Source: Candidatus Micrarchaeota archaeon (GTDB taxonomy: Archaea > B1Sed10-29 > B47-G15). Taken from it: a DNA stretch of 64,000 nucleotides. The notes under the pieces are model-generated. The model ran no database searches and was not told the origin of the DNA. It saw only the letters and a list, made by a program, of their open reading frames with translations. Location: assembly GCA_003660975.1 (NCBI GenBank), contig QMVG01000001.1:1-64000 (forward strand), read 5' to 3'. A program made the translations under genes and the position numbers. Within the stretch, counting starts at the first letter, position 1; every line of letters begins with the position of its first letter. This document shows positions 12,551 through 55,775 of the stretch, piece by piece.

Positions 12551-12559
12551 GGTGCGTGC

Positions 12560-20240: not shown

Positions 20241-20935
20241 GAATATTAAAAACGTACTTTGAAAAGAAAAAAGAAAGAGAAATGGAAGAAGAGATACCAG
20301 AAATCCTCTACCACGTTGCCAACATGCTATCATACACTAGTATTGAGGAGGTAATTAACTGGATTGCTTCAAGAGAAGGAGAGATAGGAAGGCGCTTTTT
20401 GCTTGTCAACAGAAAAATAAAGAATGGTGAAAGTGCTGAAAGGGCATTGCTTGAACTAAGAGAGAGTGTCAGAAGTGATTTCATAAAAAGAGCAGTGGAT
20501 ATGCTAATCTCTGAGTGCAGGACAGGAGCTAAGAACAGTAATATGCTAAGAGAAGTTGCGGAAGACATGCAAGACATGTTGCAGGCCAGAAGGGAAAAGA
20601 CAGCATCAGCAACTGTTGAGAAATACACTTTGTTAATTGCTGGAACTGTAATAGTGCCTCTTCTCTTGGGTCTCATGATAAGCATAAGCCACAACCTTAG
20701 CTCTGCTGAGCTGGGCGACTTTGCACTTTCCTCTGTAGACAGTGCCATAATAGAAAACAGCATACTTGGAAGTCAGATATATATCGTTGAGTATGCTTTC
20801 ATAGCAGCCCTGTTCATAGCTATTCAAGAGGGTAAAAGTGAGAACATGTTGAGATACTTAATTATAATACTTCCCAGCTCTGTTTTGATATTCAACCTGG
20901 CCCAACGCTTCAATGTCTTGCAGGTCCTATCGTAA
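20237..20935 (+). CDS. TadC-like platform protein
   Basis: EEIPEILYHVA...NGESAERAL...RTGA...LREVAED; three C-terminal TM helices. Confidence 0.8.
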   Translation: MRILKTYFEKKKEREMEEEIPEILYHVANMLSYTSIEEVINWIASREGEIGRRFLLVNRKIKNGESAERALLELRESVRSDFIKRAVDMLISECRTGAKNSNMLREVAEDMQDMLQARREKTASATVEKYTLLIAGTVIVPLLLGLMISISHNLSSAELGDFALSSVDSAIIENSILGSQIYIVEYAFIAALFIAIQEGKSENMLRYLIIILPSSVLIFNLAQRFNVLQVLS

Positions 20936-37610: not shown

Positions 37611-38174
37611 ATGAATTCACCTTTGAGAACTCTCCTCTCTAAAAGAGAGTTGTGGAGGGGTTTCACCTTCTTAATAAGTATCGGAGCTTTTTATATCTTT
37701 TTCTACATCTGCCTCCAGCCGCTAATTTATTACATAGAGAGCATAAGTACTGTGCTTACATCTTTTTTTCTCTCTGTCCTGGGGGTTGAGCACTCACTAG
37801 GCTTTGCTGCAGAGCCAGTGATAAGGGTAGGCAGCGTGGATGCGGTTATAGGCAGGTTATGCGCTGGGGACATTGAGATAGCAATGGTGCTGGCGGTAAT
37901 TTTTGCTACATTTGACAGGAAGCTAGGAGATAGGATAAAGGCAGCGCTTGTGGCTCTTCCTTTTATATTAATTGCTAATGCGATAAGGATATCAACGGTG
38001 CTGTGGGTTGGAAGCTCAATGGGCTGGGCAAGTGCTGACTTCGTTCACGACGTGCTTTTCAGGATAACATTGCTTGTGGTTGTTCTGTTATACTATGCTT
38101 TCTGGTATCTTGGATACATGGGCAGGTGCGCGGCTAAAATATTAAATAAAATAAATACCTTAGCAAAGCGATGA
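37611..38174 (+). CDS. Exosortase/archaeosortase family protein
   Basis: Polytopic membrane protein with catalytic-type Cys (LCAG), Arg (ANAIRI) and His (FVHD..FR). Start uncertain (37602, 37611 or later). Confidence 0.85.
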   Translation: MNSPLRTLLSKRELWRGFTFLISIGAFYIFFYICLQPLIYYIESISTVLTSFFLSVLGVEHSLGFAAEPVIRVGSVDAVIGRLCAGDIEIAMVLAVIFATFDRKLGDRIKAALVALPFILIANAIRISTVLWVGSSMGWASADFVHDVLFRITLLVVVLLYYAFWYLGYMGRCAAKILNKINTLAKR

Positions 38175-38944
38175 AAGGTTTTTCTCTTTTTACTCCACTT
38201 GTTGGAAGTATGATGATGATAACCGCTATAATAATTTCCATGACGATGATACAGAGCGATGCCCACAGCGCCAAGAGCTTTAACAGGGTAATGATAATGG
38301 ACGAGGCCAGAATGCAGGCCAGAATCATCCAGGCAGGCGTTAGCTCTTCGCTCCTGATAAACATTGAGAAAGCGATAAATAAGGTTGTAGAGGACGTTAT
38401 AAATAGAGGGGCTGTTTCGTGCAATAGTAACCGATGTGAGCATGCAATCAAAGGCCTTATTAAAAGCAAATTGGAGGAGAAAGATAAAGAGATTTTCTAC
38501 GCGTCCGCGCATGGTGATTATGAGAATGTTTGGATGGATATAGCAGGTATGATCAGCAACGATTACCTATCTGGTATGGGGTGTAGTGGTCAAGACAGGT
38601 TAGAAAAGTATATGAATTGTCTGTCTAACGCTTTGTCAAACCAACAACAAAGCAGTAGCTTAATAGAAGCTAACTGGAGAGGTGAAACGTTGACAGTAAG
38701 AATAAATCCCCCGCAGCCGGGAACTGAGTTGGCCGAATTGTTTAATATAAAGGCAAATGTTGGGGATTCATCAACTCCCTCAACAATCACCGTAAACGTG
38801 CTGCCAAGAGCCATCTCATATGAAAGAGATATGGAAATAAGTTGTACTCCCTGCGATTCTGGCCAAGCCGCCTGCAGTGTAGATGGTCAGCAGATTACAG
38901 TAAGCTGTGTGTCTTCAACTGGTGGGGGATTCAATAGGATATGA
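38171..38944 (+). CDS. Pilin-like protein
   Basis: MKG/FSLFTPLVGSMMMITAII class III signal; Cys-containing C-terminal domain. Confidence 0.68.
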   Translation: MKGFSLFTPLVGSMMMITAIIISMTMIQSDAHSAKSFNRVMIMDEARMQARIIQAGVSSSLLINIEKAINKVVEDVINRGAVSCNSNRCEHAIKGLIKSKLEEKDKEIFYASAHGDYENVWMDIAGMISNDYLSGMGCSGQDRLEKYMNCLSNALSNQQQSSSLIEANWRGETLTVRINPPQPGTELAELFNIKANVGDSSTPSTITVNVLPRAISYERDMEISCTPCDSGQAACSVDGQQITVSCVSSTGGGFNRI

Positions 38945-39007: not shown

Positions 39008-42000
39008 GTGGGGTTTGGAGATCTTTATTATAAGATTGAGGACAAGTGGTATGACCTTTTGGACTGGATTGAGGCCAAGGGCGTGCCTGTTTACTCTGTG
39101 GTTGACCCAATTGAGGATGCAGGCATTCCATCGCTTCCTGTTTTCGTGGGAATCTTTCTTTTGCTCTGCTACTTTGTCCTGACTGCGTTCGCGCCTGGCT
39201 TGGGAATTGCAGAGGAAGTAAATTTCTCTGTGCAGGTGTCTGACAGCAACGGAAACCTGATTCCAGACGCAGTGGTAAAAATAAGCAAAGGAGGGGAACT
39301 GCTCGTTGAGGGAAAGACATCCATACTTGGAAACTTTGACGCAAGCTTGCCGAAAGGCAGTTATGACATATCTGTCAGCGCTGCGGATTGTGATGGGATA
39401 TCAAAGCCGATTGAGGTTGTTGAAAGCGGTCAGGTAATCAGCATCACGCTGAACTGCGAGATGAGCTTTGCAAAGCAGGTAAGCATCTGCTTTGTCAGCA
39501 ATGACGGGGACACATTGGACACGCCCATAGAGGCAAACGAGGTTGACGAGTACGGCAACTTTATAGACAATGCGGGCAGATGTGATAATGCAGACAGCTG
39601 CAATTTCGAGCTAAAAGACAAATCGCTTTACGTCTTTGAGTCCCTGCATTACAGAAGCGAAATGGTTTACACCAAAAAGGATGTTGAAAGGATTTCTGAA
39701 AGGAAAAACTGCATAACGCTTGAAAGGAAAGAGGAGGAGATAGTTGAAAAAGGTTTGTTCACTGTCGAGCTGCTGCATTCTGACGGAAGCCCTGTTCCAT
39801 GGCAGCTGGTTAATTTAGTTTCTCCAGATAACCACAATTACATCATAGCAAGCCAGCACACGTCCAACGCTGGAAAGGACATAGGTAGCACGACGTTCAA
39901 GCTGAGGGTTGGCACGAAATTCATAATAGTCGTGCCTGGAGGCGAAAACACCACATACTACAAGGGAAACACAACATATGAGATAAGCTCAGAGCCACAG
40001 AGGGTGAGCATAAAATTAGACACGAGCGCAGACACTCTTTTCGCTGTAAGGGAAGAAAAAGCAGGAGTTCCAACACCTGTTCAGGGAGTTAAGATAACTG
40101 TCTTCAAAATAAAAGAGCCAAAGGACGAGATAGTTGCATTTGGCGAGACAGATAGGAATGGGGAGGCACACCTAAGCTTAACTGATGGCGAAAGATATAG
40201 GGTTTCCTTCTTCAAGGCAGGCTACAGGTATGTTGAAACAACAGTTAAGGGAGGAAGCGAGAAGGAGGTCGTCTTGGAGAAAATCTCAAAGGAAGAAGTG
40301 GGAACTGTTGATGTTTACGTGAGCATTGAGGGAAGAGAGCCTGTGAAGGATGCTATTGTCATTATGAAGCATTACGGAAACTCAAGCAAGACAGGATACG
40401 GCATCCTAAAAACAGACGCAAGAGGCCACGTGCATTACGAGTGGGTGCTTCCAGGGGAATACTGCATAATAGTGGCAAGGGCCAAGGACGAAACTAAGTG
40501 TGGGGAGCACAGCTTTACAGTGAAGGCAAATGAGAAGACAAGGGTCAATGTAGAGCTGAAGCCAATAATGTACAGCTTGGATGTCAATGTCCTGCTGAAA
40601 GGAGAGGGCGTGAGAGATGCAAAGGTATCTGTCAAAGACGCGTACTCTGGAGAGGCCATTGCATCTGGAAAAACAGATTACACTGGCTTCGTGAGCTTTC
40701 CGAACATAGCTGAGAGGAGCAAGATAAGGGTTTATGTGGAATACCTGCACAAAGATTTGGAAAGCGGCAGGACAACGCTTTACAGCCAGAGCACTGCCAA
40801 CATAATTGAGATGGATGATGATAAGGAAATCACCTTAAACCTTGTGGAGACAGGCACGAAAATCCAGTTTCTTGGTATAACAAGCAAAAGCGAGAGCTGG
40901 TGGTACGATGGCAGCAAGTGGGTGCAAGGAGCCCCTGAGCTGGTGGCAGGAAATGTGTATTACGCTGTCTTCGCTGTTGGGCTGCCCAAGCTTGAAGGAA
41001 AGAAATGGGATAGTGTTAAATTTTTGATAAGCAATCCTGAAAGCGAGGATTACGTGGCTCTCAGGAAGGCCGGAAACCTGCCCAGTTATATAAGAGACAG
41101 TAAAGCAGTTGAAAGCTCTTCAAGGTTATTCACTGTCTCTGGAAATTACGATGATAGCTCTGATATTATTTCTATATCAATTCCAATCAGGGTCAGACAG
41201 GTATTTGACGGGAGAGTGAAATACTTCCTGAACTTTTACGCTGAGTGGTGGAGAGGTAAAGACATTGTTAGAGACCCTGCAGGAAAGGACTTCAAGAAGA
41301 GCCCTGACTTTTATATTAGGGGCGAGCGCTGTTTCAAAAAAGGCAATTTCGGCATCTGCATAAAGGGAAAGAAAGAAGGCGGAATATTCTATCCTGACGA
41401 CCGATTCCACTTAGAGAAGGGAGAAAGCGCAAACTTTACCATAATAATCAGCAACGAAGGCTCTAATGCATTCGGCGGTAAGATAAAGCTGGAGGACCCA
41501 AAGAGGACAGTTGCTTTTGAAGACATAACTGCTGTCCTTACAACCCCTGAGGAGCAAGTAGGGTTAGAATATGGATTGGACAACGCAGCTGCCAGCATAA
41601 GCATAGACGCATCCCAGTATAAAAAAGAGGACGTGGCAGGGCTGCCTGTTGGCAGCAAAATCACGATAAAGACAAGAATAAAAGCAGTCTTCCCAATACA
41701 GTACACAGACATTGAGCTAAAAGTGGAAGGTAAAGCAGAGCAAGGGCTTGCTTACATATCATTCCCAATATCTGGAGATGCAGACGTACTGCTGAGAAAG
41801 AAGCCAGGGGCGATAACAGAGCTTGCAAGCAGTATCTTGTTCCAGGTAAGGGAAAACAACAGCGGCGCTCCTGGAAGGGCTGTTTACTTTGACCCCAGCA
41901 GTGTAAGTATTTACGGACCTGCATTGAACAAATTTTGTGGAGGAATCCTCTCCACGTCTTCAAGCAATGTGGGCTTCTCTGTTGACAGGCATGGAAACAT

Positions 42001-45000
42001 AACTGTTGACTTCAATGATTACTGCCACCTAAGTGTTGATCCACTCTTTGATGAAAAGCAGCAGATGTTCCTGTATGTAGAAAGCCCCATATTTGAAGGA
42101 AAAACCTTCTCAATACCTGTAAGCCCCTGCGTGCTCGGCGTGTCGCTGGACAAGAAAACAGTGTTCGCAGGAGGAGAATGCAATCTTCAATTAGTCTTTG
42201 ACGATGAGAAAAGCGGCTTGTATAAGGATGAAGAGTTGACTGAAGCTGCGAGCTCCTGCATTGGAGACAGGTGGCTTGTAGTACGTAAAAACGAGAACTG
42301 CAACCCTGTTTTCGGAGAAATAAAAGAAAAGAACGTGAGCATAGAAGCAAAGGAAAGTTGGGTTGCTGGTGAATGGGTCAAGGCAAATATATCAGGCGAA
42401 AAGCTGGAAAAGAACGTTAATAATGAAATTGTAAGCTTCTCGTACGAAGAGATTCCTCCTGACGTGGTGGGAGACAGGGACATAGGAGATCTTGACAAGG
42501 AAGAGGTAAACGGGGCTGCTGTGCTGAAAATCAAGGCAACGGCTAAAAATGAAGTCAATGGCGACGTGTACGTCAGGCAGGACATAGAGATGCCTCTGGT
42601 CATAAGGGATGCAGGCAACTGCCTCACAGTGCCTGAAAGGGAAAGCACTGTGCAGATTCTCCCAAACATAGTGTGCCCGATTAACTTTGAAATAGGCAAC
42701 TTCCCAGGAATTGAAGGCGGAGAGCCCGTGTGCAGCAAGAGCAATTCAATCACATACATATTCGGAAGGAGCGACAAGGACTACTGCAATGACCTTGACC
42801 TTAATAAGATAGAGTCCTTAGAAGTGGAATACAATGAAGAAGAATACAGTGAAAGTAGTTTTGTCCATGTTTCAAGCAAAAGCACTGGGCTGAACGTAAG
42901 TATAACCAAAGGCAGTGGAGAGAACCCACCAAGGACTGTAAAGCTGACAGTTAAACCGAAGATAGAGGGCTTCAAGACAGAAAGGAAAGTCATTGTCAAT
43001 GCTAACCTGGACGGTGGTGGATGCTATGACGCAAATGAGATAGGGAGGGTAAAGCTGCACGGGAACACAGAGTGCAAGATAACGTTCAGCGCAGGTGAAT
43101 CCTCTGGCGGAGAAGGATATATCGAGTGTAAAGACATTGAAGAGGCAGAAGATTACAAAACAGCAACAGTCGAGATAAAAAAGAGGGTGGATGAATGCCC
43201 TGACTTTTTAATCAGCAGCGCGAGTATCGAGGGAGATTCGAATTGGGAGATTACTGAAACTGGCGATAAATATGTAAAAGTGAAGTACGACAAGGGGGAC
43301 TTCAGATACGGGGACACATTTGAGGCAAATCTAAACCTGGAATTAGAGCTCAACTATGAGAACGGGAAAGAGCTTTCAGAAAATATCGTTGTCCCTCTTG
43401 AGACAGGGCTCAACCTGCCTGGCTGGGAAAATGTATATGCAAAAGCAGTGCAGCCTTACCATTTCAATGATGACGGCTCAGTTGACGTTTCGTCGCTTGA
43501 CTGCGAATCAAATGCCTGCAACCTGGAGCAGGCAATGCTATGGCTCAAAGAGCAAAGCAATGACTTCACAAGCAGTCCTGAGGAGGGGATAAGCTTCAAT
43601 CTCGTTCACACGGGCGCCACGGTCCACGACATACAGGCTGCTATGGAAAAAATTGAAAGCGGGAAAAACATTGTGGTGGCAGATAATGTTGATGGCTCAA
43701 GTGGTGATGCGATAGTCATTTCAAGTGACTCTGAACTGGGCTTGGGAGAAAACGCGCTGAGAATAAACAAGGCGAGGAGCGACGGCGAGGAGATAATACC
43801 ATTCCTGCGATTCTCCAACAAGGGAGCAGGTGAAATCAACTCTAGGAAGGCAAGATACTTTAATTACTACTTGCCATTGGTTGCCGATGGGAGCAGTGAA
43901 CTGAATACAATGGTGGATGCTCCAGAGGACTTAAAGGAGAACGTTAAAGAGATGCTGGCAGAGATGTGGGGCTTGCAAGCAGAAGAGCTGAGCTGGCCTT
44001 CTGTGTCCTATTCTGCGAGGATAGTGGTAAAGAGCTGTGGAGTAGATGACAACAGCGAATGCTGCTCTGATTACAATGAGAAGGTCGGCAGCTCGTCCAC
44101 TCCTGCTGTCTTCGTGCTCACCTCTGGCCAAACTGTGCCAGTCACTTGCGTGGTGGCGAGAAACGAGAAGGCCCTCAGCAACTTCATTGAAACCGTAAGC
44201 AGCTTCCTGGAAGGCAGCAAAAGAATGGCCTACAATAAGGACAAGGACTACCTAACTACCCAGAGGAACTTCATAATCCTGAAAGGCGTTGAAGGAAGCA
44301 GCGACTTCTTTGCTGACACTAACAGGTGGCAAAAAGTAAATGATGAACTGAAAGATGAAATAGCTTCTGTGCTGGGCGTTGACAAGAAAAAGGCAATGCT
44401 GGTCCACATGGAACCAGAGGAAAACTGGGAGAACACATATGTGGCTCCTGACATGACCATATTCGTGTGTTCAAAAGGCGAACAGTGCGGCTGGGATTCT
44501 CTTGAAATAAATTCATTACCAGAGTTTGAAGGAGCACACATATGGATTCCAGAAGGAGGCATGTACAAGTACGACAGCAGTATTGGAAGCTTCCTACTTG
44601 TAGATGACAGCGAAAAGGACTCCTGGATAAGCATAGGCAAAAAGCTGCTGCCATACGAAGGAAATACCTACATCCACGCTATTGATGAGAACAACCGCAA
44701 CACGAAACTGTGCCCCAACTCAGAAAGCTGCGTTATCGGAATAAAGAACATCAATGGAATCACGAAAGCAGTGGTGGACGCAAAGGAAATGACTGATGAG
44801 GAGCTGCTTAGCTACGTGAAGAAGGCCGAAGGAAATGAATACTTTGCGCTGCACCTAATCCCAACAGACGAGGAAAAGGATATAGGGAAGCAGTGCAGGG
44901 TGGAAGACGAGGAAGTAAAGATACTTGATGAAAACGGGAATGAAGCGCAACTTGGCTACGGAAACGTTTACCTTGTGGCAGTGGAGAAGGCAGAGACCGG

Positions 45001-46216
45001 CGACAGCAAGAAGGCCGTTTACCTCAAAGAGCTGACCAGCTTCGAAACGCCTGAGCTGGGCGACTGTTATGTTGGGGCAGAGGAAATGGATATTAATCAG
45101 TTAATGGATTTGATTACAGAAAACATTTACGGCACTGAAGACGCAGAGCCCAAGCTCCAGAAGGGAGAACTTATCAAAATTGTTAGGATAAATAATCCTT
45201 ACTATAAAAAGTTTGGTTATTATGACCCAGACGATAAGATATCCTCGTTTGAAGTCTATGAAGGAGACACCTCTGTGAGCAGGCTTGTCCAAGGGGGTTA
45301 TTACAAACTATCAATAACTGCCCCAGAGTCAAAAGAGAGACAGTATAAAATTAAATTAGAACTTCTCAAAATTGATACAAGTGGATTGGAAGGTAAAGAG
45401 ATTGGGTTCCTCGGGTTGGCCAAAAAAGCCATTGTTAGATATCCAACATATAATGAAGGAAAGATTGCTATTGTCAAAGGAGGGGAATGCAATGATGCAG
45501 TAACAGAAATAAATTATTGTAGAAATGATGATCTGGTGTTCCACAAGCAAGTAGAGGGGAGTGTGAAGTATAAATTAAAAGAAGGTGGACCTTTAGGCGG
45601 TTATGTGATAGAGCCTAAATATTATTGCCAGAAAAATGATGCTAACTTACGCGAAAGCTTTTGTGTTGAATCTGATAAGATCCCAACTCCAGGTTTAGAC
45701 GAAAAGGAGGTATATAAAATATTTGAATGTCCTGCTCCTTTAGGATATGTTGCACATAAAGTTGGAGATACACATATGAAAGATACGATAAATCAAATTG
45801 TCACTTTTATGTTTATGCAAGGAGGAGTCTTTTACAGACCTTCCGTAGCACCCATCCCAGACAGGCAACCAAGTTGCATTAGTGAGAAGGCATTCGATTA
45901 TATGGATAGATATAATGACCTATTGTATTATGCGAGACCAAGTTTTCATAATTATATGGGTGAATACTTCTCTAATGGTTATCAATCCTCCACTGTAAGT
46001 GGCACCCATAAACCATATATTGGCAAGCCAATCAAATATGGAGACGGAAATCAGTACTTTGCGTGTGGGTCACTAGATGGTTATGAGTACAGTAGCTTTG
46101 TTCCACCTTATTACTGCTGCGACGTCGGACTCGGCCTCCACGTTACAAATGGACACTGCTGTCCTATTGGTTTTGATTGGAATGAAGGAAAAAAACTGTG
46201 TGTAAGGACTGGCTGA
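39008..46216 (+). CDS. Giant N-terminally anchored surface protein with repeated carboxypeptidase-regulatory-like/prealbumin-type beta-sandwich domains
   Basis: 2402 aa. Amphipathic N-terminus plus TM, repeats of the type P(I/V)..A.V.I......G.TD..G...F..L..G.Y, acidic Cys-paired C-terminal domains. Confidence 0.8.
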   Translation: MGFGDLYYKIEDKWYDLLDWIEAKGVPVYSVVDPIEDAGIPSLPVFVGIFLLLCYFVLTAFAPGLGIAEEVNFSVQVSDSNGNLIPDAVVKISKGGELLVEGKTSILGNFDASLPKGSYDISVSAADCDGISKPIEVVESGQVISITLNCEMSFAKQVSICFVSNDGDTLDTPIEANEVDEYGNFIDNAGRCDNADSCNFELKDKSLYVFESLHYRSEMVYTKKDVERISERKNCITLERKEEEIVEKGLFTVELLHSDGSPVPWQLVNLVSPDNHNYIIASQHTSNAGKDIGSTTFKLRVGTKFIIVVPGGENTTYYKGNTTYEISSEPQRVSIKLDTSADTLFAVREEKAGVPTPVQGVKITVFKIKEPKDEIVAFGETDRNGEAHLSLTDGERYRVSFFKAGYRYVETTVKGGSEKEVVLEKISKEEVGTVDVYVSIEGREPVKDAIVIMKHYGNSSKTGYGILKTDARGHVHYEWVLPGEYCIIVARAKDETKCGEHSFTVKANEKTRVNVELKPIMYSLDVNVLLKGEGVRDAKVSVKDAYSGEAIASGKTDYTGFVSFPNIAERSKIRVYVEYLHKDLESGRTTLYSQSTANIIEMDDDKEITLNLVETGTKIQFLGITSKSESWWYDGSKWVQGAPELVAGNVYYAVFAVGLPKLEGKKWDSVKFLISNPESEDYVALRKAGNLPSYIRDSKAVESSSRLFTVSGNYDDSSDIISISIPIRVRQVFDGRVKYFLNFYAEWWRGKDIVRDPAGKDFKKSPDFYIRGERCFKKGNFGICIKGKKEGGIFYPDDRFHLEKGESANFTIIISNEGSNAFGGKIKLEDPKRTVAFEDITAVLTTPEEQVGLEYGLDNAAASISIDASQYKKEDVAGLPVGSKITIKTRIKAVFPIQYTDIELKVEGKAEQGLAYISFPISGDADVLLRKKPGAITELASSILFQVRENNSGAPGRAVYFDPSSVSIYGPALNKFCGGILSTSSSNVGFSVDRHGNITVDFNDYCHLSVDPLFDEKQQMFLYVESPIFEGKTFSIPVSPCVLGVSLDKKTVFAGGECNLQLVFDDEKSGLYKDEELTEAASSCIGDRWLVVRKNENCNPVFGEIKEKNVSIEAKESWVAGEWVKANISGEKLEKNVNNEIVSFSYEEIPPDVVGDRDIGDLDKEEVNGAAVLKIKATAKNEVNGDVYVRQDIEMPLVIRDAGNCLTVPERESTVQILPNIVCPINFEIGNFPGIEGGEPVCSKSNSITYIFGRSDKDYCNDLDLNKIESLEVEYNEEEYSESSFVHVSSKSTGLNVSITKGSGENPPRTVKLTVKPKIEGFKTERKVIVNANLDGGGCYDANEIGRVKLHGNTECKITFSAGESSGGEGYIECKDIEEAEDYKTATVEIKKRVDECPDFLISSASIEGDSNWEITETGDKYVKVKYDKGDFRYGDTFEANLNLELELNYENGKELSENIVVPLETGLNLPGWENVYAKAVQPYHFNDDGSVDVSSLDCESNACNLEQAMLWLKEQSNDFTSSPEEGISFNLVHTGATVHDIQAAMEKIESGKNIVVADNVDGSSGDAIVISSDSELGLGENALRINKARSDGEEIIPFLRFSNKGAGEINSRKARYFNYYLPLVADGSSELNTMVDAPEDLKENVKEMLAEMWGLQAEELSWPSVSYSARIVVKSCGVDDNSECCSDYNEKVGSSSTPAVFVLTSGQTVPVTCVVARNEKALSNFIETVSSFLEGSKRMAYNKDKDYLTTQRNFIILKGVEGSSDFFADTNRWQKVNDELKDEIASVLGVDKKKAMLVHMEPEENWENTYVAPDMTIFVCSKGEQCGWDSLEINSLPEFEGAHIWIPEGGMYKYDSSIGSFLLVDDSEKDSWISIGKKLLPYEGNTYIHAIDENNRNTKLCPNSESCVIGIKNINGITKAVVDAKEMTDEELLSYVKKAEGNEYFALHLIPTDEEKDIGKQCRVEDEEVKILDENGNEAQLGYGNVYLVAVEKAETGDSKKAVYLKELTSFETPELGDCYVGAEEMDINQLMDLITENIYGTEDAEPKLQKGELIKIVRINNPYYKKFGYYDPDDKISSFEVYEGDTSVSRLVQGGYYKLSITAPESKERQYKIKLELLKIDTSGLEGKEIGFLGLAKKAIVRYPTYNEGKIAIVKGGECNDAVTEINYCRNDDLVFHKQVEGSVKYKLKEGGPLGGYVIEPKYYCQKNDANLRESFCVESDKIPTPGLDEKEVYKIFECPAPLGYVAHKVGDTHMKDTINQIVTFMFMQGGVFYRPSVAPIPDRQPSCISEKAFDYMDRYNDLLYYARPSFHNYMGEYFSNGYQSSTVSGTHKPYIGKPIKYGDGNQYFACGSLDGYEYSSFVPPYYCCDVGLGLHVTNGHCCPIGFDWNEGKKLCVRTG

Positions 46217-46257: not shown

Positions 46258-46620
46258 ATGGAGCCAATGGCAAGCATTGCAGTGATAGGGATAATAAGCA
46301 GGATACTCGGAGATATCAACCTGGCTGTAACTGGCTTCAAGATAATTGTTTTGCTCTTTGTCATACAGTTCATACGCTCGCATTTTGACGCAGGGCCTAT
46401 TCCTGTGCTGCTCACACTGATAATTGGGTACATATTCCTCTTCCAATACTGGGAGATATTCGGTCCGATAATGCTTGTTTACTTTTTCATAATATTTGGA
46501 TTTGTCTCAGTGCTGCTTGACATAGCCATAGTCAAGCCTTGGGCAGGAGGAGGTCATGTCAAAAAACCAGACATGACAAGTAAAGATATGTTGGAGAGGA
46601 TGAGAAAATACCATGGGTGA
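46258..46620 (+). CDS. Small polytopic membrane protein, family A paralog 1
   Basis: Hydrophobic hairpin ..QFIRSHFDAG..IIGYIFLFQYW; start re-chosen from the TATA spacing. Confidence 0.75.
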   Translation: MEPMASIAVIGIISRILGDINLAVTGFKIIVLLFVIQFIRSHFDAGPIPVLLTLIIGYIFLFQYWEIFGPIMLVYFFIIFGFVSVLLDIAIVKPWAGGGHVKKPDMTSKDMLERMRKYHG

Positions 46621-46624
46621 TTGA

Positions 46625-46990
46625 ATGAACAAAGGGTTTACTGTTGTTCCAATGATAATAATCGCTCTCATATTTTTAGTTATAATAGGGCTTGGGGTTG
46701 CGCTTATAGTAAAAATACCAATACTTAACATAATGTTTAGGTTTTACATGCTCATCATAATATACACTTTCGTGAGGAGGATAGTTGGGACAGGGATATT
46801 GGCATATGTCATAACCGCAATACTAGCATACATATTCGTGTGGAAGCTCTGGGTTATGGCAGCAGGCGTATATCTCTCATATATCATATTTAGCTTTGGA
46901 ATCTCAGGCATAATCATATTCGGCCTTGAGGGAATGTGGAGAAGAGGTGGAGGAGAAGTGGCTGAGGAGGCAGCTAAAAGGCTGGCATAG
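46625..46990 (+). CDS. Small polytopic membrane protein, family A paralog 2, with class III-like signal
   Basis: MNKG/FTVVPMIIIAL and ..TFVRRIVGTG..ILAYIFVWKLW. Confidence 0.75.
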   Translation: MNKGFTVVPMIIIALIFLVIIGLGVALIVKIPILNIMFRFYMLIIIYTFVRRIVGTGILAYVITAILAYIFVWKLWVMAAGVYLSYIIFSFGISGIIIFGLEGMWRRGGGEVAEEAAKRLA

Positions 46991-47020
46991 TTATATTAAT
47001 AAAAAATGTAATAATATTGC

Positions 47021-47260
47021 GTGATGCATATGGGAGGTCTTTGGTCTGACATAGGTATTGCCATTACAATAATACTATTTGTATATCTAGTAAAATGGGC
47101 AAGCGATTTAACGAAAAGCAAAACACTGGGCATTATAATAGGGGCTGCTATAGCTTACTTTACATTCTACCAGCACTTTGAAGTATTGCTATTCGTACTG
47201 CTGTTCTTCTTCGGTTATCCGTTCTGGGAGAGCTTAACAAAGGGATTCCTTGGAGAGTGA
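47021..47260 (+). CDS. Small membrane protein, family A paralog 3
   Basis: ..KWASDLTKS..AIAYFTFYQHF. Confidence 0.68.
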   Translation: MMHMGGLWSDIGIAITIILFVYLVKWASDLTKSKTLGIIIGAAIAYFTFYQHFEVLLFVLLFFFGYPFWESLTKGFLGE

Positions 47261-47264
47261 AGCA

Positions 47265-47555
47265 ATGGATCAGTTCTCTACGATAGTGTTGATTGTAATG
47301 ATGTTCCTAGCCTGGACCAGAGACCTGACATGGCTTTTCATAGGTCTTGTAGTCATACTTGTACTAACCAGTAAGAGCATAGGTCTTGCAGCGCTTTTCA
47401 TAGCGGGGGCTGCCATAACCTGGCTGCTGAACTTAAAGGAATACTGGGTAATAGTGATGATATTGATGGCATTGATAGTAATAGCTGTTAAAAGAAAAGA
47501 GGGCTCGTCTGCTGGATATTATTCCCCAGAGCTGTTGAGGTTATTGGGTGGGTAA
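47265..47555 (+). CDS. Small polytopic membrane protein
   Basis: About 4 short TM segments and a C-terminal YYSPELLRLLGG; start 47250 or 47265. Confidence 0.7.
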   Translation: MDQFSTIVLIVMMFLAWTRDLTWLFIGLVVILVLTSKSIGLAALFIAGAAITWLLNLKEYWVIVMILMALIVIAVKRKEGSSAGYYSPELLRLLGG

Positions 47556-47897
47556 ATGGCAAATGAAGGTATTGTAGTGCTGTCTTTTATCCTAATCTTA
47601 TTGGGATTCTACCTAAAACAGCTATGGCTCAGCTTCATATTTATAATGGTGATATTCGCTTTACTGCTCACAAGGCCTAGTAAAAAGGCGAAGAAAGCTG
47701 CTCCAAGAGGACCTGTGGTAAGGCCTATAATAGTGAAGAGAAAGTATGTGGGGCCTGAGTCAATATATCCTGAAAAAATGCATATTAAAATAACGCCTAG
47801 GGCCCCTGATGACTGGTATGAATATGGGGGAGAGTATCTGGGAGGATTTATAGGTAAAAGCTTAAGGTTCATAAAGAGAAAATTGGGAGGAGATTAA
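47556..47897 (+). CDS. 2-TM protein, family B paralog 1
   Basis: TM hairpin, basic linker, RPIIV...IYPEKMHIKITP, amphipathic C-terminal helix. Confidence 0.75.
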   Translation: MANEGIVVLSFILILLGFYLKQLWLSFIFIMVIFALLLTRPSKKAKKAAPRGPVVRPIIVKRKYVGPESIYPEKMHIKITPRAPDDWYEYGGEYLGGFIGKSLRFIKRKLGGD

Positions 47898-48242
47898 GTG
47901 TTAAATGTCTTTGCATTCTTAATTGTTGTCTTTCTGGTTGCATTATTCTTGAGAATTGACATCGTTGTATACCTGACTATCATAGTGGCGATAATTCTTG
48001 CTTTGACATACAAAAAGCCAGAGGAGAAGAAAGTAGCTGAAAAGGCAGCTCCGAGAGAGGTTATATATCCTGTTATATATGAAGATGCTGGAGAGCCTCC
48101 ATACTTATATCCTAAGAAGCAACAGATAAAAGTCAGACCAAATCAGATAGATGATGTTGAATGGGAAAAGACAGTTGCCATGCCTGGTAGAATACTGGCA
48201 AGCATAATGGGCTTCTTTACTGGAAAATATAAGAAGAAGTGA
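47898..48242 (+). CDS. 2-TM protein, family B paralog 2
   Basis: TM hairpin, KAAP, YPVIY...LYPKKQQIKVRP. Confidence 0.75.
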   Translation: MLNVFAFLIVVFLVALFLRIDIVVYLTIIVAIILALTYKKPEEKKVAEKAAPREVIYPVIYEDAGEPPYLYPKKQQIKVRPNQIDDVEWEKTVAMPGRILASIMGFFTGKYKKK

Positions 48243-48595
48243 TGGCTATGAGGTTTGACTTGTTCCTCTTTGTGTTTTTCATTGGGCTTTTCTTTTACTT
48301 GTCTGGATACAAGGCACTCTCACTTGTGCTCTTCATAATCTCTGTTGTACTGCTGCTCTATGACAGGCCAAAAAGGGCAAAAAAGGCAGCTGCTGGCTAT
48401 GAAATGGGAGAACCAATTATAATTGAGAGCACAAGAAATGCTCCATTTAGGATACCTGACAAATACTGGCTGAAGGTAGCCCCGAAAAAGGGCCCTGCGC
48501 AGCCAGGAGGCAAGTTTACCAAGGCAGGTTTTAAGACATTCGGCAGGATAAACGAATATATTGCTGATAAGGTAAAAGAATGGTGGAATGGCTGA
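48239..48595 (+). CDS. 2-TM protein, family B paralog 3
   Basis: TM hairpin, RPKRAKKAA, EPIII...RIPDKYWLKVAP. Confidence 0.75.
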   Translation: MMAMRFDLFLFVFFIGLFFYLSGYKALSLVLFIISVVLLLYDRPKRAKKAAAGYEMGEPIIIESTRNAPFRIPDKYWLKVAPKKGPAQPGGKFTKAGFKTFGRINEYIADKVKEWWNG

Positions 48596-49038
48596 TGATT
48601 GCCAGCTTAACAGGCATATTGCTCTCAATCATTGGATTGATATATTCAAATGCAATTATCCTACTTTTGGGGGTTATTTTTATTGTTATTGACTTCTTGC
48701 CTTCAAAAAAGAGCAAAACTGAGCAAAAAGCAGTAGCAACCGAGGTGAAAAAAGAAAGGCACATCGTGGTAAACAGCCCCCCTCCTACTGAGGAAGGAGC
48801 TGAATTCTTTATGGCAATGCAAGCAGGCAATCCAGCAATGCCACATATCAGAAAGATGTATACGGATAAGGAAACAAGCGAGGTGCTAATGCCACACGAC
48901 TACCTGCCTTTCCAGGAACCTGCCAACATAAACCCTCTAAGGAAAATATTTATTGGCTATCCAAATTATGTCTTAAGGCGAATCTTCAGTGGTGTCAATT
49001 TCTTTGAAGACCTGGAAAAAAGGTGGAGAGAAAAATAG
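48580..49038 (+). CDS. 2-TM protein, diverged family B-like
   Basis: TM hairpin, PSKKSK linker, HIVV-PPP, amphipathic C-terminus. Confidence 0.7.
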   Translation: MVEWLMIASLTGILLSIIGLIYSNAIILLLGVIFIVIDFLPSKKSKTEQKAVATEVKKERHIVVNSPPPTEEGAEFFMAMQAGNPAMPHIRKMYTDKETSEVLMPHDYLPFQEPANINPLRKIFIGYPNYVLRRIFSGVNFFEDLEKRWREK

Positions 49039-49611
49039 TTACTTTTCCAATCTCATAAGAAACTTGGTGTTTGTGTCAAGAATCTTCTGGTTTATGTCCC
49101 TCAAAGCTTTTATTGATGCCTTCATATCAATTAGCATTTCTTTTATCTGTTGGAGCTCTTCTCCCAATTCCCCTATACTTGAAATCTTTTCGTGAAGCGC
49201 ATTGTGGCCCTCCTTCATTTCAGAAACAGCAGAATGTATCTCATTTATTTTTTCCTTGTGCTCTTGAACATTGCTTTTTATTTCGTGGATATGGTCCTCG
49301 TATGCGCTAACCTTTTCGTTCAACTGCTCGACTGCCTCATGAATCCGCGATGTGTTTTCGCTTTGTTTTTTTATCTCTGGCATGATGGGAGTTAAGTGGT
49401 CTCCACTTTCTATTTTTTCTTTTATGTTTTGTACGGTGTTGTGGATGTCTTGATTGCTCGGCGCTGATTTGGCTTCATCCAGCACTGAGGATATTTCGTC
49501 CTCACTGAGAGACATGGCCTTTAATGTTTTTTTAATGTCCTCCTGCCCCATACCAGATGCGTTCATAGAGCGCACAATGCTGGCTATCTGCTCCAACTTT
49601 TCCTTTTCCAT
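49039..49611 (-). CDS. Coiled-coil protein with small N-terminal helical domain
   Basis: Long heptad pattern (IHEAVEQLNEKVSAYEDHIHEIKSNV...); start re-chosen at MEKEK. Confidence 0.72.
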   Translation of the reverse strand: MEKEKLEQIASIVRSMNASGMGQEDIKKTLKAMSLSEDEISSVLDEAKSAPSNQDIHNTVQNIKEKIESGDHLTPIMPEIKKQSENTSRIHEAVEQLNEKVSAYEDHIHEIKSNVQEHKEKINEIHSAVSEMKEGHNALHEKISSIGELGEELQQIKEMLIDMKASIKALRDINQKILDTNTKFLMRLEK

Positions 49612-49667
49612 ATTAATGTTTAAAGCATATGAATATATAAAAAGCAATCCTCTAATACTCTGATTAT

Positions 49668-51008
49668 ATGGATTCAGATCAGCTCTTATTCGGACCTTGG
49701 AGCCCTATTTTCAAAGGAGATTGGACAGGGCATCCCATAGAGATCCTTGAAAATCCAGAGAAAATGGTGCTTACTGTGCTAAACTTTGATGGTGAGCAAT
49801 ATGTTCTGCTGAATAAATTTCTCATAGCTGAGGGATATGTTGAAAAGCTAATAGAAGAAATGCCAGGAAAGAACAGCTTCATATTTAAAATACTGCCAAG
49901 TAAAAAGCTCAAAATCATTTCTCTTTCTTCTGAGATAAAGAAGGCAGGTAAAGACATCAATGAAAAAATAAGAGACTTGAAGGCTGAGCTTGAAAAAAGG
50001 AAAGAACTGCTCACAAGCATTTCAGCAAGGTATTCCGTAAATATCAGGGAATTAAAAGAAAGTCCAGAAGCAGCTGAGCTACTTTTCTCAGAGCCTGTTC
50101 TAAGCTTGGCCACATTAACGCTCAAGAGAACAGAGAAAAAAGGCAAACTGGGCCTTTTAGGCATAAAAAGCAATGGCCAGCTGCTTTATGTGGATAGAGC
50201 GTCAATGAGGTCTGTGGCCTTGATAGGTGAACTGGAGAAGATGAGAAAATGCTTGCAGGTCTTAATAGAAAACAGTTTCTTAGATAACCTGAGCCCAATG
50301 ATAATTGACAAAAGCGACTACTTTGAACGCATGGTTTCAGCCAATCAGTCATTTGACTCTGCCGTATTTCCTTTGTCTCCAATGGGCTTTCCAATAGAGA
50401 GGATTAAGATAGGAGACATAGGCATAAGCTTTGCTGTCCTGACTGCAAAGCGTTTGAAGGCCTTGCTAAGAGTAAAAGAGAGCAAAAGCTTTGACATTAT
50501 CTCTGATATCATGGAAAAAGAAGGTGACTTTGCAACGTTGGAGGACTTAGAAAACAAGATAATGGAGATAAATGACGAGAGCCAGAGGTTTCATGCCTAT
50601 CGTGCAGCAAGATGGATAAGCTTAATTGAGCGCTTATATGGAGATTTATTTAAAAAGAGGCTAGAAATGCCTCCAGAAAGGCAAATAACCATTATAGACC
50701 CAGGAAATTACAGAAAGGAGATAGTGGAATTGTTCTTACTATCTTTACTACAGGAGAGCATGGAAAACAGGGCTGTCTTTGTAAGCAATCAAAACTTCCT
50801 GAAGACAGCGGCTTTAAGAGAAGACATAATAGATAACATAGAAAAGACCTCTTCCTGTTTTGTGTTTGAAGATGAAATTGACATACCAAAAAGGATGTCT
50901 GAAAAGGTAACAATGAGCATAAAATATGTCTCTAATAATGACTTTGCAGTAAAGGACAGGAAGAAAGGCAAGTTTAGAATAAGATTGAGAGATACACTAA
51001 GTGCCTAA
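49668..51008 (+). CDS. Degenerate HerA/FtsK/VirB4-like ATPase-domain protein (Walker A lost)
   Basis: LG.KSNG......RSVALIG[ELEKMR]KCLQVLIEN.FLDNLSPMIID..D...P.GFPI matches the HerA N-terminal ATPase layout, but GxxGxGK is absent. Confidence 0.55.
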   Translation: MDSDQLLFGPWSPIFKGDWTGHPIEILENPEKMVLTVLNFDGEQYVLLNKFLIAEGYVEKLIEEMPGKNSFIFKILPSKKLKIISLSSEIKKAGKDINEKIRDLKAELEKRKELLTSISARYSVNIRELKESPEAAELLFSEPVLSLATLTLKRTEKKGKLGLLGIKSNGQLLYVDRASMRSVALIGELEKMRKCLQVLIENSFLDNLSPMIIDKSDYFERMVSANQSFDSAVFPLSPMGFPIERIKIGDIGISFAVLTAKRLKALLRVKESKSFDIISDIMEKEGDFATLEDLENKIMEINDESQRFHAYRAARWISLIERLYGDLFKKRLEMPPERQITIIDPGNYRKEIVELFLLSLLQESMENRAVFVSNQNFLKTAALREDIIDNIEKTSSCFVFEDEIDIPKRMSEKVTMSIKYVSNNDFAVKDRKKGKFRIRLRDTLSA

Positions 51009-51427
51009 CCTTTTAATTTTTTTAGTTTCTCATCTAAAAGCTCTTCTAACTGGTCTATCTTAACATATTCTACAGGATTAATGTTATCAAGCACATATTT
51101 AATTTCAGCTATCTGGGCTTCTAACTCGGATATTCTTTTTGTATTGTCTCTCACACTTCTCTCTATTGAGCTAAAAAGTGTCTTCAGCTCTTCATTGCTT
51201 TTTTTTATTTCATCCATTAGATTCTTATTGATTGGTTCTGCCTTGAGGCCTTTTTCCTCCATAAGCTTTTTTATATTTTTGTTATGCGTAATAAGTGTTT
51301 TTCCTATTATTTGCTCGTTTTTTTCTATCACCATCATTCGCTGCGCAATTACCCTTATCTTTGAATCCAAAGCCCTTATTTCTGAATAAAGCTCTTGAAG
51401 TCCTATGCTCCTGGAATCATGAGGCAT
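51005..51427 (-). CDS. Coiled-coil protein
   Basis: Heptad repeats and a C-terminal INPVEYVKIDQLEELLDEK. Confidence 0.7.
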   Translation of the reverse strand: MPHDSRSIGLQELYSEIRALDSKIRVIAQRMMVIEKNEQIIGKTLITHNKNIKKLMEEKGLKAEPINKNLMDEIKKSNEELKTLFSSIERSVRDNTKRISELEAQIAEIKYVLDNINPVEYVKIDQLEELLDEKLKKLKG

Positions 51428-54728: not shown

Positions 54729-55775
54729 TTGGATGATATTAGCATGACAAACAAAAATGCTTTGCTTTTAATTGTGTTATACTCTGCCTTTAGCATTTTG
54801 TGGTTGTATGTATTCTCCATTACTGGCTTTTCGCTTTCGGACTCAGTTAACTTTAATGTCATGAGTAAAATTGTGGGTTCTATTAGACTTTTATTTTTGA
54901 TTGGCTTCTTAATGGCTCTCTCGCTTGTTACTTTGTCTTATTTTTCAGATAGGCTTGAAAGAAAAAAAGCCATCATATTCTCTATTGCTGCTGTAATACT
55001 GACATTGTTAATTTCTTCGCTCTTTTTCCAAAACAAAATGCAGTTTTTGTTGATGATGCTCTTTTACGGCCTAGGAAGTGTATGGGTATCATATCAGAAA
55101 AGTGAAAAGAAAGGTGCAAGCAGACGCATGAGAGATGGATGGAAGATGGCAAAAAAGATGACATTAAGCTTGGCCTTTGGTGCTGTTATTGTGTCTGTTA
55201 TATTTGTTAATATGAACGCAACATATTATGAGGACAGTTTTAAAGATTCCTTGCTTTCTCTTGTCTCGTCATTTGATGTAAGCAAAATGCTCTCTGATCC
55301 AGAGTTCATTGAGGAGATGGTAAAGGAGCAGATACCTGATTACCAGACGTTCAGGGAAGAGGCCTTGGCCTCTCAGGGTATAGAAAGCATAGATGATGTT
55401 AGGGAAAAGATAAGAGAACAGTATGAAAATCAGGCAGGTTGGGAGCAGATACCAGAAGACAGACAGAGAGAGATTATAGAAAACGCAACGCTAACGTCGT
55501 GGAATTTACTTGAGCAGCAAATAAATGAGTCATACCAGAATATGTTTGGTTCAGAAGCGTTAAGGTCCAGGATATCTGAGATGCAGTCAAAAATCTCCAA
55601 AGAGAACATAGGCAAAATAAGCTCTCAATTCATAGAAAAAATGCCCTTTATGAATATTTTAATAAAAGCTTTGCCATATGTTGTTGCCTTCATTTCTTTC
55701 TCAGCCATTACGCTTTTCGGCACCGTATGTGTAGCTCCTTTTGCCGCTGTGCTGAATTTATTGTTTAGGCGATAA
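54729..55775 (+). CDS. Hypothetical membrane protein with a large helical extracytoplasmic loop
   Basis: Five N-terminal TMs, an acidic helical domain and a C-terminal TM. Confidence 0.7.
   Translation: MDDISMTNKNALLLIVLYSAFSILWLYVFSITGFSLSDSVNFNVMSKIVGSIRLLFLIGFLMALSLVTLSYFSDRLERKKAIIFSIAAVILTLLISSLFFQNKMQFLLMMLFYGLGSVWVSYQKSEKKGASRRMRDGWKMAKKMTLSLAFGAVIVSVIFVNMNATYYEDSFKDSLLSLVSSFDVSKMLSDPEFIEEMVKEQIPDYQTFREEALASQGIESIDDVREKIREQYENQAGWEQIPEDRQREIIENATLTSWNLLEQQINESYQNMFGSEALRSRISEMQSKISKENIGKISSQFIEKMPFMNILIKALPYVVAFISFSAITLFGTVCVAPFAAVLNLLFRR

Follow-up and report, generated by a model that had tools for sequence, protein, structure and literature searches.

What is built by eight small membrane proteins that are encoded side by side, between the gene for a giant surface protein and that for a HerA-like protein, in the genome of a small archaeon? 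The question is raised by a 64,000-nucleotide stretch of DNA (the window; positions 1–64,000 of contig QMVG01000001.1, Candidatus Micrarchaeota archaeon) whose source assembly amounts to 1.33 Mb in 130 contigs. At 46258–49038 on its forward strand lie eight co-oriented open reading frames (ORFs) of 79–152 amino acids (aa), all of them predicted to specify small membrane proteins. DPANN archaea are very small organisms, thought for the most part to be host-dependent, and both the organization of their envelope and the manner in which their cells connect are largely obscure.

Comparison between genomes shows, as far as sequences can, that the eight genes form an ancient orthologous series (A1, A2, A3, g4 and B1–B4) which is kept in a fixed order and belongs to no known family. 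We suggest that they specify a hetero-oligomeric membrane platform which ties the giant surface protein to a cytoplasmic scaffold made of a pseudo-HerA and coiled-coil proteins, an explanation which we prefer and would call plausible rather than probable. Since some 12 genes are present in nearly every examined genome of two phyla, and no family can be recognized among them but one degenerate HerA fold, the block has a strong claim to be an envelope machine that defines these lineages.

The eight genes

The genes are, in order:

46258–46620 (alternative GTG start at 46198), + strand: g1 (A1), predicted core of three transmembrane (TM) helices characteristic of family A plus a basic cytoplasmic C-terminal tail; orthologs in both phyla
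46625–46990, + strand: g2 (A2), A core with one additional N-terminal TM
47021–47260, + strand: g3 (A3), minimal 3-TM A core; the ATG at 47030 is the likely start from ortholog comparison
47250–47555, + strand: g4, 4-TM protein outside families A and B
47556–47897, + strand: g5 (B1), TM hairpin, Lys-rich linker, motif and C-terminal helix
47898–48242, + strand: g6 (B2), TM hairpin, linker, motif and C-terminal helix
48239–48595, + strand: g7 (B3), TM hairpin, linker, motif and C-terminal helix
48580–49038, + strand: g8 (B4), TM hairpin with a longer tail; a distant member of family B

Successive genes overlap by up to 16 bases or are separated by up to 30, in agreement with the first-pass annotation of this DNA, which had described eight tightly packed and co-oriented ORFs. 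Shine-Dalgarno-like sequences are found upstream of g2 (GGTGA), g5 (GGTGG) and g6 (GGAGG). In one same-genus pair of genomes the seven genes from A1 to B3 have ratios of nonsynonymous to synonymous divergence (dN/dS) of 0.03–0.28, at a dS of 0.9–2.1 which is near saturation; A3 (0.03) and A2 (0.04) are the most constrained. These ratios for seven genes, together with orthologs in two phyla, show that the eight genes are real and evidently under purifying selection.

None of the eight proteins has a Pfam match at E ≤ 1, and none of 121 A, g4 and B proteins has one at the cut-off (E ≤ 5e-4); four sub-threshold hits among the 121 (MASE3, ASFV_J13L and, twice, NfeD_membrane) are compositional. NCBIfam and PADLOC return nothing for the eight window proteins and solved folds give no match, which bears out the earlier statement that no known family could be recognized here. 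Profiles of Mrp/Mnh, Eha/Ehb and A/V-ATPase subunits, named in the first-pass annotation as possible known homes for these proteins, match none of the 121 proteins (Pfam) and none of the eight (NCBIfam). We found no description of the cluster in the literature, including the accessible portions of PMC6393860, PMC4158269 and PMC8204110; the supplementary lists of lineage-specific families of the last of these may include the families described here.

Family A and g4

The paralogy of g1, g2 and g3 had been proposed from the window, and both BLASTP and profile comparison agree with it. Within the operon g1 is related to g2 [2e-10] and to g3 [2e-4] (E values in square brackets, here and below); comparison of ortholog-built profiles with hhalign gives 94.8% for A1 and A2, 89.5% for A1 and A3, and 3% for A2 and A3 directly. 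In the window's class, a group of 31 genomes considered below, the A genes sort into three positional ortholog groups. The loop and helix motif described earlier for family A is present in A proteins, whose helix ends keep conserved polar or charged residues.

A1, A2 and A3 display the same Lys/Arg (K/R) bias, with means of 2.0–2.6 K/R in loop 1 and 0.1–0.5 in loop 2; on this basis loop 1 and every C-terminus are placed in the cytoplasm, with one predicted orientation for all three proteins. A dual topology of the SMR or Fluc type was thus not found in A1–A3, where K/R orientation is equal, nor was any family match.

Profile comparison ties g4 to neither family A nor family B. Its conserved start is MD.F(T/S), and in the window's class it has a C-terminal motif, YYSPELMRLLGG, which is predicted to be cytoplasmic. 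The g4 tails of the second phylum discussed below are Gly/Met-rich repeats (..GGMGGMGGMGGY), for example in L075:9203–9553 (− strand) and L069:10010–10330 (+ strand). A ubiquitin-like role for the C-terminal GG was considered and rejected, since GG is non-terminal in many orthologs. No longer or fused forms of A2 or of B were found, which is weak evidence. The ESM Atlas, searched with g2, returned only unnamed clusters, labelled Ca. Iainarchaeota.

Family B

As the first-pass annotation had it, g5, g6 and g7 are paralogs and g8 is a more distant relative. The first three find one another by BLASTP [3e-7 to 8e-9], and profiles of B1, B2 and B3 compare at 97.6–98.9%. Gene 8 falls in the B cluster in an all-versus-all BLAST at E < 1e-5; its profile compares with that of B1 at 60%, over the TM hairpin alone. 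The motifs P(I/V)I(V/Y/I) and P.K..(I/L)K(I/V).P that had been claimed for the family were found again.

Each subfamily carries a motif of its own. That of B1 is V(R/Q)PI(I/K)V(K/Q)R.Y.GP.SIYPEKM; that of B2 is PV(I/V)(Y/V)(E/Q)D.GEPP.LYP, with P58, V59, D63, G65, P68, L70, Y71 and P72 invariant; that of B3 is (L/M)(E/D)PI.IE(S/T).R.AP(F/Y)RIP; and the tail of B4 bears KH.(L/V)IQ(A/S)P followed by LPF..YG. At the equal position in the tail the charge differs (KRKY in B1, YEDxGE in B2, IES.R in B3), and these oppositely charged motifs suggest, as a hint, that B1, B2 and B3 may pair with one another. Invariant motifs specific to each subfamily and placed in a fixed order would fit the co-assembly of non-interchangeable subunits.

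In a phylogenetic tree B2, B3 and B4 each form one branch (SH-like approximate likelihood ratio test 90, 95 and 93), and a single B1 clade is not rejected (approximately unbiased test, p 0.345); the test is partly circular because the groups were defined by motif. The order B1-B2-B3-(B4) is kept in 17/17 loci with at least two classifiable B genes. In one locus (L013) the B2–B4 group is inverted and lies 2 kb from B1.

A scan of 185,579 species genomes with a degenerate B2 motif returned 24 records, every one of them a metagenome-assembled or single-amplified genome of DPANN archaea, with the titles Ca. Iainarchaeum, Diapherotrites, Micrarchaeota archaeon, Nanobdellati archaeon or simply "archaeon." The B1–B3 profile, run against 1.84 billion proteins, gave 138 representatives (101 at E ≤ 1e-10), all of 63–160 aa, which divide 37/42/59 into B1/B2/B3, with 22 ambiguous.

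B linkers are rich in Lys, Ala and Pro. The tails comprise 75–115 residues with a mean of 12–15 K/R, and the loop between TM1 and TM2 has a mean of at most 0.6 K/R. Because of this bias the tails are placed in the cytoplasm, with almost no mass outside; this is a prediction from the positive-inside rule and not a measurement. An AlphaFold2 (AF2) model of g6 built from 139 sequences [mean predicted local distance difference test (pLDDT) 79.6, predicted template modelling score 0.40] has helices at residues 2–18 and 21–37, an extended stretch without secondary structure at 38–87 (pLDDT 73–83), and a helix at 88–108. The C-terminal helix of the first-pass annotation is therefore seen in the model, and its amphipathic nature is moderate only: the mean best hydrophobic moment is 0.51–0.52, and z exceeds 2 against shuffled sequences in 22 of 48 B tails.

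The g6 model has no Foldseek match in the PDB at E ≤ 0.001, and a wider structure search yielded only generic helical hairpins, over residues 1–48 with Z ≤ 5.2. The ESM Atlas, searched with g5, gave scores of at most 0.80 and unnamed clusters only. A likeness to NfeD goes no further than sub-threshold matches to PF24961 in 2/17 B2 proteins (24.3 and 22.2 bits; cut-off 26), with no NfeD C-domain; unlike the C-terminal oligonucleotide-binding-type domain of NfeD, the tail of g6 has no strand-rich fold in its model. Prediction of a B1+B2+B3 complex, with B2 as the partner, returned a score of 0.02 (mark 0.32) and no verdict, and is evidence neither way.

The comparison with VirB2- or CedA-type helical pilins that had been made for the operon fails on topology. 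A pilin-like build, short and with little cytoplasmic mass, is not what the B proteins have: their long, conserved, K/R-rich tails are predicted to be cytoplasmic, and the AF2 model of g6, a hairpin followed by a 50-residue strap and a helix, agrees with this.

Gene neighbourhood and its conservation

The eight genes recur in other genomes with neighbours which are, in the window:

37602–38174, + strand: archaeosortase/exosortase-family membrane protein (TIGR04178, 44 bits against a cut-off of 23; Pfam Exosortase_EpsH, E 1.3e-6), directly upstream of p257
38171–38944, + strand: p257, N-terminal (K/R)GFSLF(T/S)PL(V/I)G followed by a hydrophobic stretch
39008–46216, + strand: giant, 2402-aa surface protein, ending 41 bases before g1
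49039–49647 (likely start 49611), − strand: cc202, a cytoplasmic coiled-coil protein whose N-terminus forms a small helical domain, convergent with g8
49668–51008, + strand: p446, 446 aa, HerA fold without Walker A, a pseudo-ATPase
51005–51427, − strand: cc140, coiled coil, divergent from the gene for a family-B DNA polymerase

Downstream of cc140 lie that polymerase (PolB) and then a methionine aminopeptidase (MetAP).

The 31 genomes of the window's class bear public titles of Ca. Iainarchaeum, Diapherotrites or Micrarchaeota archaeon. Searching with g5 alone detected B1 in 27/41 relatives, all of them within this class, and in 0/10 other archaea. Twenty loci of the class were fetched and their ORFs clustered by BLASTP; the recurring order is p257-giant-A-A-A-g4-B-B-B-(B)-[Cys-rich]-cc202(−)-p446(+)-cc140(−)-PolB-MetAP-p348. 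A genes were present in 19 of the 20 loci, B genes in 18 and p446 in 17, the misses falling mostly to contig ends or to the ORF filter. With a profile p446 was found in 28 of the 31 genomes, including all 11 of high quality, and in 22 of the 27 genomes holding both B1 and p446 the two are on one contig within 6.3 kb (hand tally).

Three minor observations concern individual genomes of the class. Eight loci (L016, L018–L023 and L032) have an extra gene of 200–240 aa between B4 and cc202, absent from the window, whose product has a signal peptide and an ectodomain rich in Cys, bears a basic tail on its C-terminal TM, and belongs to no family. In two genomes the whole block is in duplicate: the copies in G011 (contigs C1 and C8) score identically, which suggests assembly redundancy, and in G012 (contigs C7 and C12; loci L026 and L025) the B proteins of the copies are 40–59% identical, which suggests two organisms in one bin or an old duplication. 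Two p446 matches (G022:C31:56800–58252 and G021:C39:2256–3693) contain in-frame stops (TAA or TGA) and may be pseudogenes or sequencing errors.

When the p446 profile was run against 151 genomes, it matched strongly and at full length five times among the 120 that lie outside the class [1e-94 to 1e-113], always in one other phylum of small-genome archaea. In that second phylum p446 is present in 119/121 genomes (53/53 of high quality), almost always as a single copy, and the A2 profile finds 116/121 genomes (52/53 of high quality). Of 31 loci fetched, 25 were mapped and enter the count of p446 loci in this phylum. Most of these 25 have the order giant (1.8–2.7 thousand aa)-A1-A2-A3-g4-one B-like gene-cc202-p446-cc140-PolB-MetAP-7-TM. 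The product of the B-like gene (Bx) is built like a B protein: its TM hairpin is joined to a charged tail, and a helix (for example ..NFFDxLGKLFxK) forms the C-terminus. Since the order A1-A3-g4 is common to both phyla and the second has a single Bx, the A triplet and g4 are on this evidence older than the split of the two phyla, and the B array grew to three or four genes later, within the window's class.

The first-pass annotation had made its case depend on conservation of paralogy and gene order across archaea. Both are kept, the order being fixed within the class and the block recurring in a second phylum, so in this respect its proposal of diverged paralogs survives.

At three second-phylum loci (L077:10763–11338, + strand; L081:3597–4253, − strand; L074:10673–11236, + strand) a B-like domain forms the C-terminal end of a protein of 187–218 aa with extra N-terminal TMs. 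A g4-B fusion was considered for L077 (191 aa) and rejected, as the g4 hidden Markov model (HMM) has no match in the N-terminal part. In both phyla a 6-7-TM protein gene follows PolB-MetAP: in the window at 54729–55775 on the + strand, with a weak TgpA_N match [1.2e-4], and elsewhere as genes of about 320–380 aa after MetAP in L057, L058, L060, L063, L068, L069, L072, L075 and L087. Because of this shared polytopic gene the conserved block appears to extend further.

The presence of PolB and MetAP bears on the simplest alternative, namely that the genes specify eight independent small membrane proteins which form no common complex and are co-located through inertia of gene order in small genomes. 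These two unrelated housekeeping genes are part of the same block, and the number of B copies varies, as inertia would allow. Tight or overlapping junctions, an ancient series of paralogs in fixed order, near-universal presence in two phyla and modules which stay intact through independent rearrangements all speak against it, and we think it improbable.

The rearrangements are informative. In 74 of the 116 second-phylum genomes with both genes, A2 and p446 are within 6.5 kb on one contig (hand tally). Of the genomes in which the block is divided, G151 and G159 have giant-A1-A2 at one site and A3-g4-Bx-cc202-p446 at another; cc140 and PolB follow p446 in G159, and cc140 was not detected in G151. 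In G183 the giant and A2 are 150 kb from p446 on the same contig, and in G247 a contiguous giant-A1-A2-A3-g4-Bx lies 46 kb from p446. From these splits we therefore recognize three modules: giant+A1+A2, A3+g4+B, and cc202+p446+cc140. The middle module occurs with either of its neighbours, and giant-A1-A2 is contiguous in every split seen.

One might regard A1–A3, each with a 3-TM unit, together with g4 as a small hetero-oligomeric channel or transporter unrelated to the giant or to p446. Three ancient 3-TM paralogs in fixed order, the strong constraint on A2 and A3 (dN/dS 0.03–0.04) and the polar or charged residues kept at helix ends would suit such a role. The proteins match no transporter family (Pfam, NCBIfam), their predicted orientation is equal, unlike that of dual-topology pairs, and where the block splits A1-A2 accompany the giant and A3 stays with g4 and B, an odd behaviour for the parts of a single channel. 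We give this proposal little credit.

A defence system was also considered and rejected: there is no PADLOC match, and the block is near-universal and single-copy.

The giant surface protein

The giant begins with an N-terminal stretch of about 50 aa (YYKIEDKWYDLLD...GVPVY..DPIE..GIPS), predicted to be cytoplasmic, which is followed by one TM anchor and then by CarboxypepD_reg/Ig-like domains (Pfam). The consensus of the stretch is ..YYK.EDKWY..LD...IPVY..DPI.K..PS. It is this stretch and the TM that are best conserved between the phyla, the ectodomain diverging fast; with six second-phylum giants the sole BLAST high-scoring segment pair covers residues 1 to about 110–170.

Upstream, p257 stands before or beside the giant gene in five loci of the class. 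Its N-terminal motif is present in 5/5 orthologs (the window, L013, L015, L017 and L031) and resembles a candidate class III (prepilin-type) signal; the protein has no Pfam family.

That the giant is an S-layer protein was considered and rejected. The published Micrarchaeota S-layer protein, according to the accessible part of that account, differs from it, being of 101 kDa with PF05123 domains (bioRxiv 10.1101/2021.04.28.441871).

Might the small proteins be a transient machine, an accessory translocon or chaperone, for the export, insertion or assembly of this N-terminally anchored protein of more than 2000 aa? The contiguity of giant-A1-A2 in every split seen would agree with that, the conserved N-terminal stretch could serve as a recognition signal, and in the window genes for archaeosortase-family and pilin-like proteins lie just upstream. 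Such a machine has no energizing component here, because p446 has no P-loop, and neither Pfam nor NCBIfam relates the proteins to Sec, YidC, Tat or components of secretion systems; a fast-evolving ectodomain on a fixed N-terminal stretch fits a permanent partner equally. We consider the export machine rather unlikely.

p446 and its coiled-coil neighbours

The gene beyond the operon had been described as a dead HerA/VirB4-like ATPase, and the structural model and sequence alignment uphold this. The AF2 model of p446 (pLDDT 84) consists of a six-stranded N-terminal barrel and a RecA-like alpha/beta core. Its best Foldseek match is HerA [1.7e-10, 4d2i], then 9x1m and 7wrw, with VirB4, DndH, TrwK and FtsK lower; the values for 4d2i, 9x1m, 7wrw, 8xau, 8j4u and 8ziq range from 1.7e-10 to 1e-6, and those for VirB4 [4ag6] and for TrwK in the R388 type IV secretion system (T4SS) [8rtd] are 2.8e-7 and 9.9e-7. 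A profile search of the PDB matches HerA [7e-4, 8wiv]. Five of 17 p446 relatives match PF01935 (DUF87) at E ≤ 0.1, the best at 6.3e-7; the window's p446 itself does not. A p446 profile returned three proteins from a protein collection, with one source name, "hypothetical protein."

The P-loop is absent: no GK[ST] stands at its position in any of 17 aligned p446 sequences, and the loop is shortened. Neither is there a conserved acidic pair of the Walker B kind at the strand end in the 17 sequences, the window reading ..AVFVSNQN... Judging from its model, p446 would be a clear case of a HerA-family ring retained as a non-catalytic scaffold.

Both cc202 and cc140 are conserved beside p446 in both phyla. 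The conserved ends of cc140 read ..AQR.K.IEKNEQI.GKTL..HNK.LKEL.. and ..KYVLD.INP.EYVT... No family could be assigned to either, cc202 giving only coiled-coil noise in Pfam, the PDB and NCBIfam, and cc140 only such noise in a PDB profile search.

Comparison with known systems

In the T4SS inner-membrane complex and in the archaeal Ced/Ted system for DNA import, small parts accompany an ATPase, VirB2, VirB3 and VirB6 being found with VirB4, and CedA, CedA1 and CedA2 with CedB. Small TM-hairpin proteins adjoining a VirB4-like gene recall VirB3/VirB4. The block is like these systems in that a gene of the HerA/FtsK fold lies beside small TM-hairpin or polytopic proteins and a large surface protein. 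It differs in having no sequence match, a HerA-type barrel without a P-loop in p446, cytoplasmic tails, and a near-universal, single-copy distribution.

Such likeness underlies a reading that follows the idea of the first-pass annotation, in which the block specifies a cell-cell junction or a conduit of T4SS/Ced kind. The A, g4 and B proteins would take the roles of VirB2, VirB3 and VirB6, p446 that of the base and the giant that of an adhesin, and the whole would serve exchange with a host. In its favour are the matches of the p446 model to VirB4 [4ag6] and TrwK [8rtd] and, in the accessible text of a cryo-electron tomography study of a DPANN co-culture (PMC11329633), a 21-nm docking barrel of unassigned identity that a cultivated Microcaldota (Micrarchaeota) symbiont carries in its envelope. 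On the other side, the top fold matches are HerA with its N-terminal barrel; Walker A is lost in all 17 p446 sequences, so that an active partner ATPase of the VirB4/CedB type is not found; no T4SS or Ced part (VirB2/TrbC, VirB3, VirB6, CedA-type) matches the eight window proteins in Pfam or NCBIfam or the 121 proteins in Pfam; the conserved tails are predicted to lie in the cytoplasm, which is unlike a pilin; and the block is a near-universal, single-copy core, neither mobile nor patchy. The conduit is distinctly unlikely. The contact apparatus which had been suggested fares no better, as a near-universal single-copy core block in two phyla is unlike an accessory contact device. A pilus or filament is disfavoured because of topology and the dead ATPase.

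The p446 fold is common to HerA hexameric translocases and scaffolds, both HerA-NurA and the SIR2-HerA and DUF4297-HerA defence systems. The present block differs from them in that p446 is without Walker A and B, has no NurA, SIR2 or DUF4297 neighbour and no PADLOC match, and is accompanied by membrane and coiled-coil proteins.

Two further systems offer analogies. Type VII secretion in Firmicutes involves EssC, which has degenerate FtsK-like domains, the large EsaA, and the small EssA and EssB. Likewise the block combines a large anchored ectoprotein, small membrane proteins and FtsK/HerA-class domains which have lost catalysis; it differs in that no homology was detected, in that neither substrates of the WXG100 kind nor an active ATPase domain came to light, and in that the organisms are archaea. 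In the flagellar/type III secretion system (T3SS) export gate, FliP, FliQ and FliR are paralogous helical-hairpin proteins which are encoded in fixed order and form one hetero-oligomer. The likeness lies in paralogous hairpin membrane proteins in fixed gene order, and the difference in the absence of any sequence or fold match, of an export ATPase and of any other flagellar or T3SS gene.

A cell-cycle role for part of the block has also to be weighed, in which A3, g4 and B with cc202, p446 and cc140 would be a membrane tether of the chromosome or replisome, a HerA-derived ring placed by PolB, and the giant a mere neighbour. The HerA/FtsK-superfamily fold of p446, the divergent arrangement of cc140 and PolB in both phyla and the Lys/Ala/Pro-rich B linkers would accord with this. 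There is no DNA-binding domain and, p446 being without a P-loop, no motor activity; G247 keeps A3-g4-Bx beside the giant and away from p446; and two FtsZ genes in the genome serve division. Such a device is highly improbable. A division machine as the primary reading was rejected on the same ground, that the genome has two FtsZ genes.

It could also be proposed that the block is the symbiont's side of an intercellular junction, with copies of the giant forming an envelope-spanning barrel or fibre which meets the host, A1–A3, g4 and B its base, and the dead HerA ring and two coiled-coil proteins a collar or gate. The 21-nm barrel, as described in the accessible text of PMC11329633, could be such a structure only if the second phylum is Micrarchaeota. 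We regard the junction as clearly unlikely; were it true, every part of this secretion-system-like machine would be new, and it would need no ATPase of its own.

A proposed membrane platform

According to the explanation we prefer, subunits of A, g4 and B would form one hetero-oligomeric platform in the membrane. A1 and A2 would hold the giant by its TM anchor and by the conserved cytoplasmic stretch at its N-terminus. A3, g4 and B would present their cytoplasmic tails, that is, the B straps and C-terminal helices and the YYSPELMRLLGG motif of g4, and these tails would be the docking site of the HerA-like ring, which has lost catalysis, and of the coiled-coil proteins that accompany it. So arranged, the parts would act as a static tether which links a very large surface protein, through the membrane, to a scaffold in the cytoplasm, and would be neither a pilus nor an ATP-driven translocator. 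In the window's class a single ancestral B gene would have given rise to three or four non-interchangeable paralogs which pair mutually. Near-universal, single-copy presence argues for a core role in the envelope.

Several observations weigh against the platform. For every pair among A, g4, B, the giant and p446, association is inferred from gene context and sequence. The synteny includes PolB, MetAP and the 7-TM gene, whose functions are unrelated, so a conserved neighbourhood alone is no proof and can mislead. A2 and p446 are unlinked in 42 of the 116 second-phylum genomes with both (hand tally), among them all 28 of families f80 (14), f76 (12) and f95 (2), and in the remaining 14 they are on different contigs of fragmented assemblies; in the class, the B genes and p446 of G008 are on separate contigs. 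Homology of Bx to B1–B4 is weak, with hhalign values of 62–76% over the hairpin only and matches to a class B HMM at E < 0.01 in 5/25 loci. As the number of B genes varies from one to four, a B1–B4 hetero-oligomer cannot be the conserved core, and the B tail, which has no globular fold in the model, may simply be disordered. The ORFs in relatives were called with a crude custom script.

The N-terminal stretch of the giant, A1/A2, A3/g4/B and p446 are the targets which the platform offers for work in cultivated relatives.

Other genes

The genome holds two DUF87 proteins besides p446. Elsewhere in the same genome, a DUF87/HerA central domain above the Pfam cut-off (48 bits) is found at G000:C13:10970–11380, inside an open frame of 3996 aa.

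At 17800–19422 on the + strand the window carries a type II/IV secretion-family ATPase (T2SSE) [3e-40] with N-terminal 4Fe-4S ferredoxin domains (Fer4) [1e-14], a combination that is unusual in a motor for pili or secretion. Altogether three separate T2SSE/T2SSF (type IV pilus-like) modules are present in the 64 kb, at 9730–13714, 17800–20935 and, on the − strand, 33326–37610.

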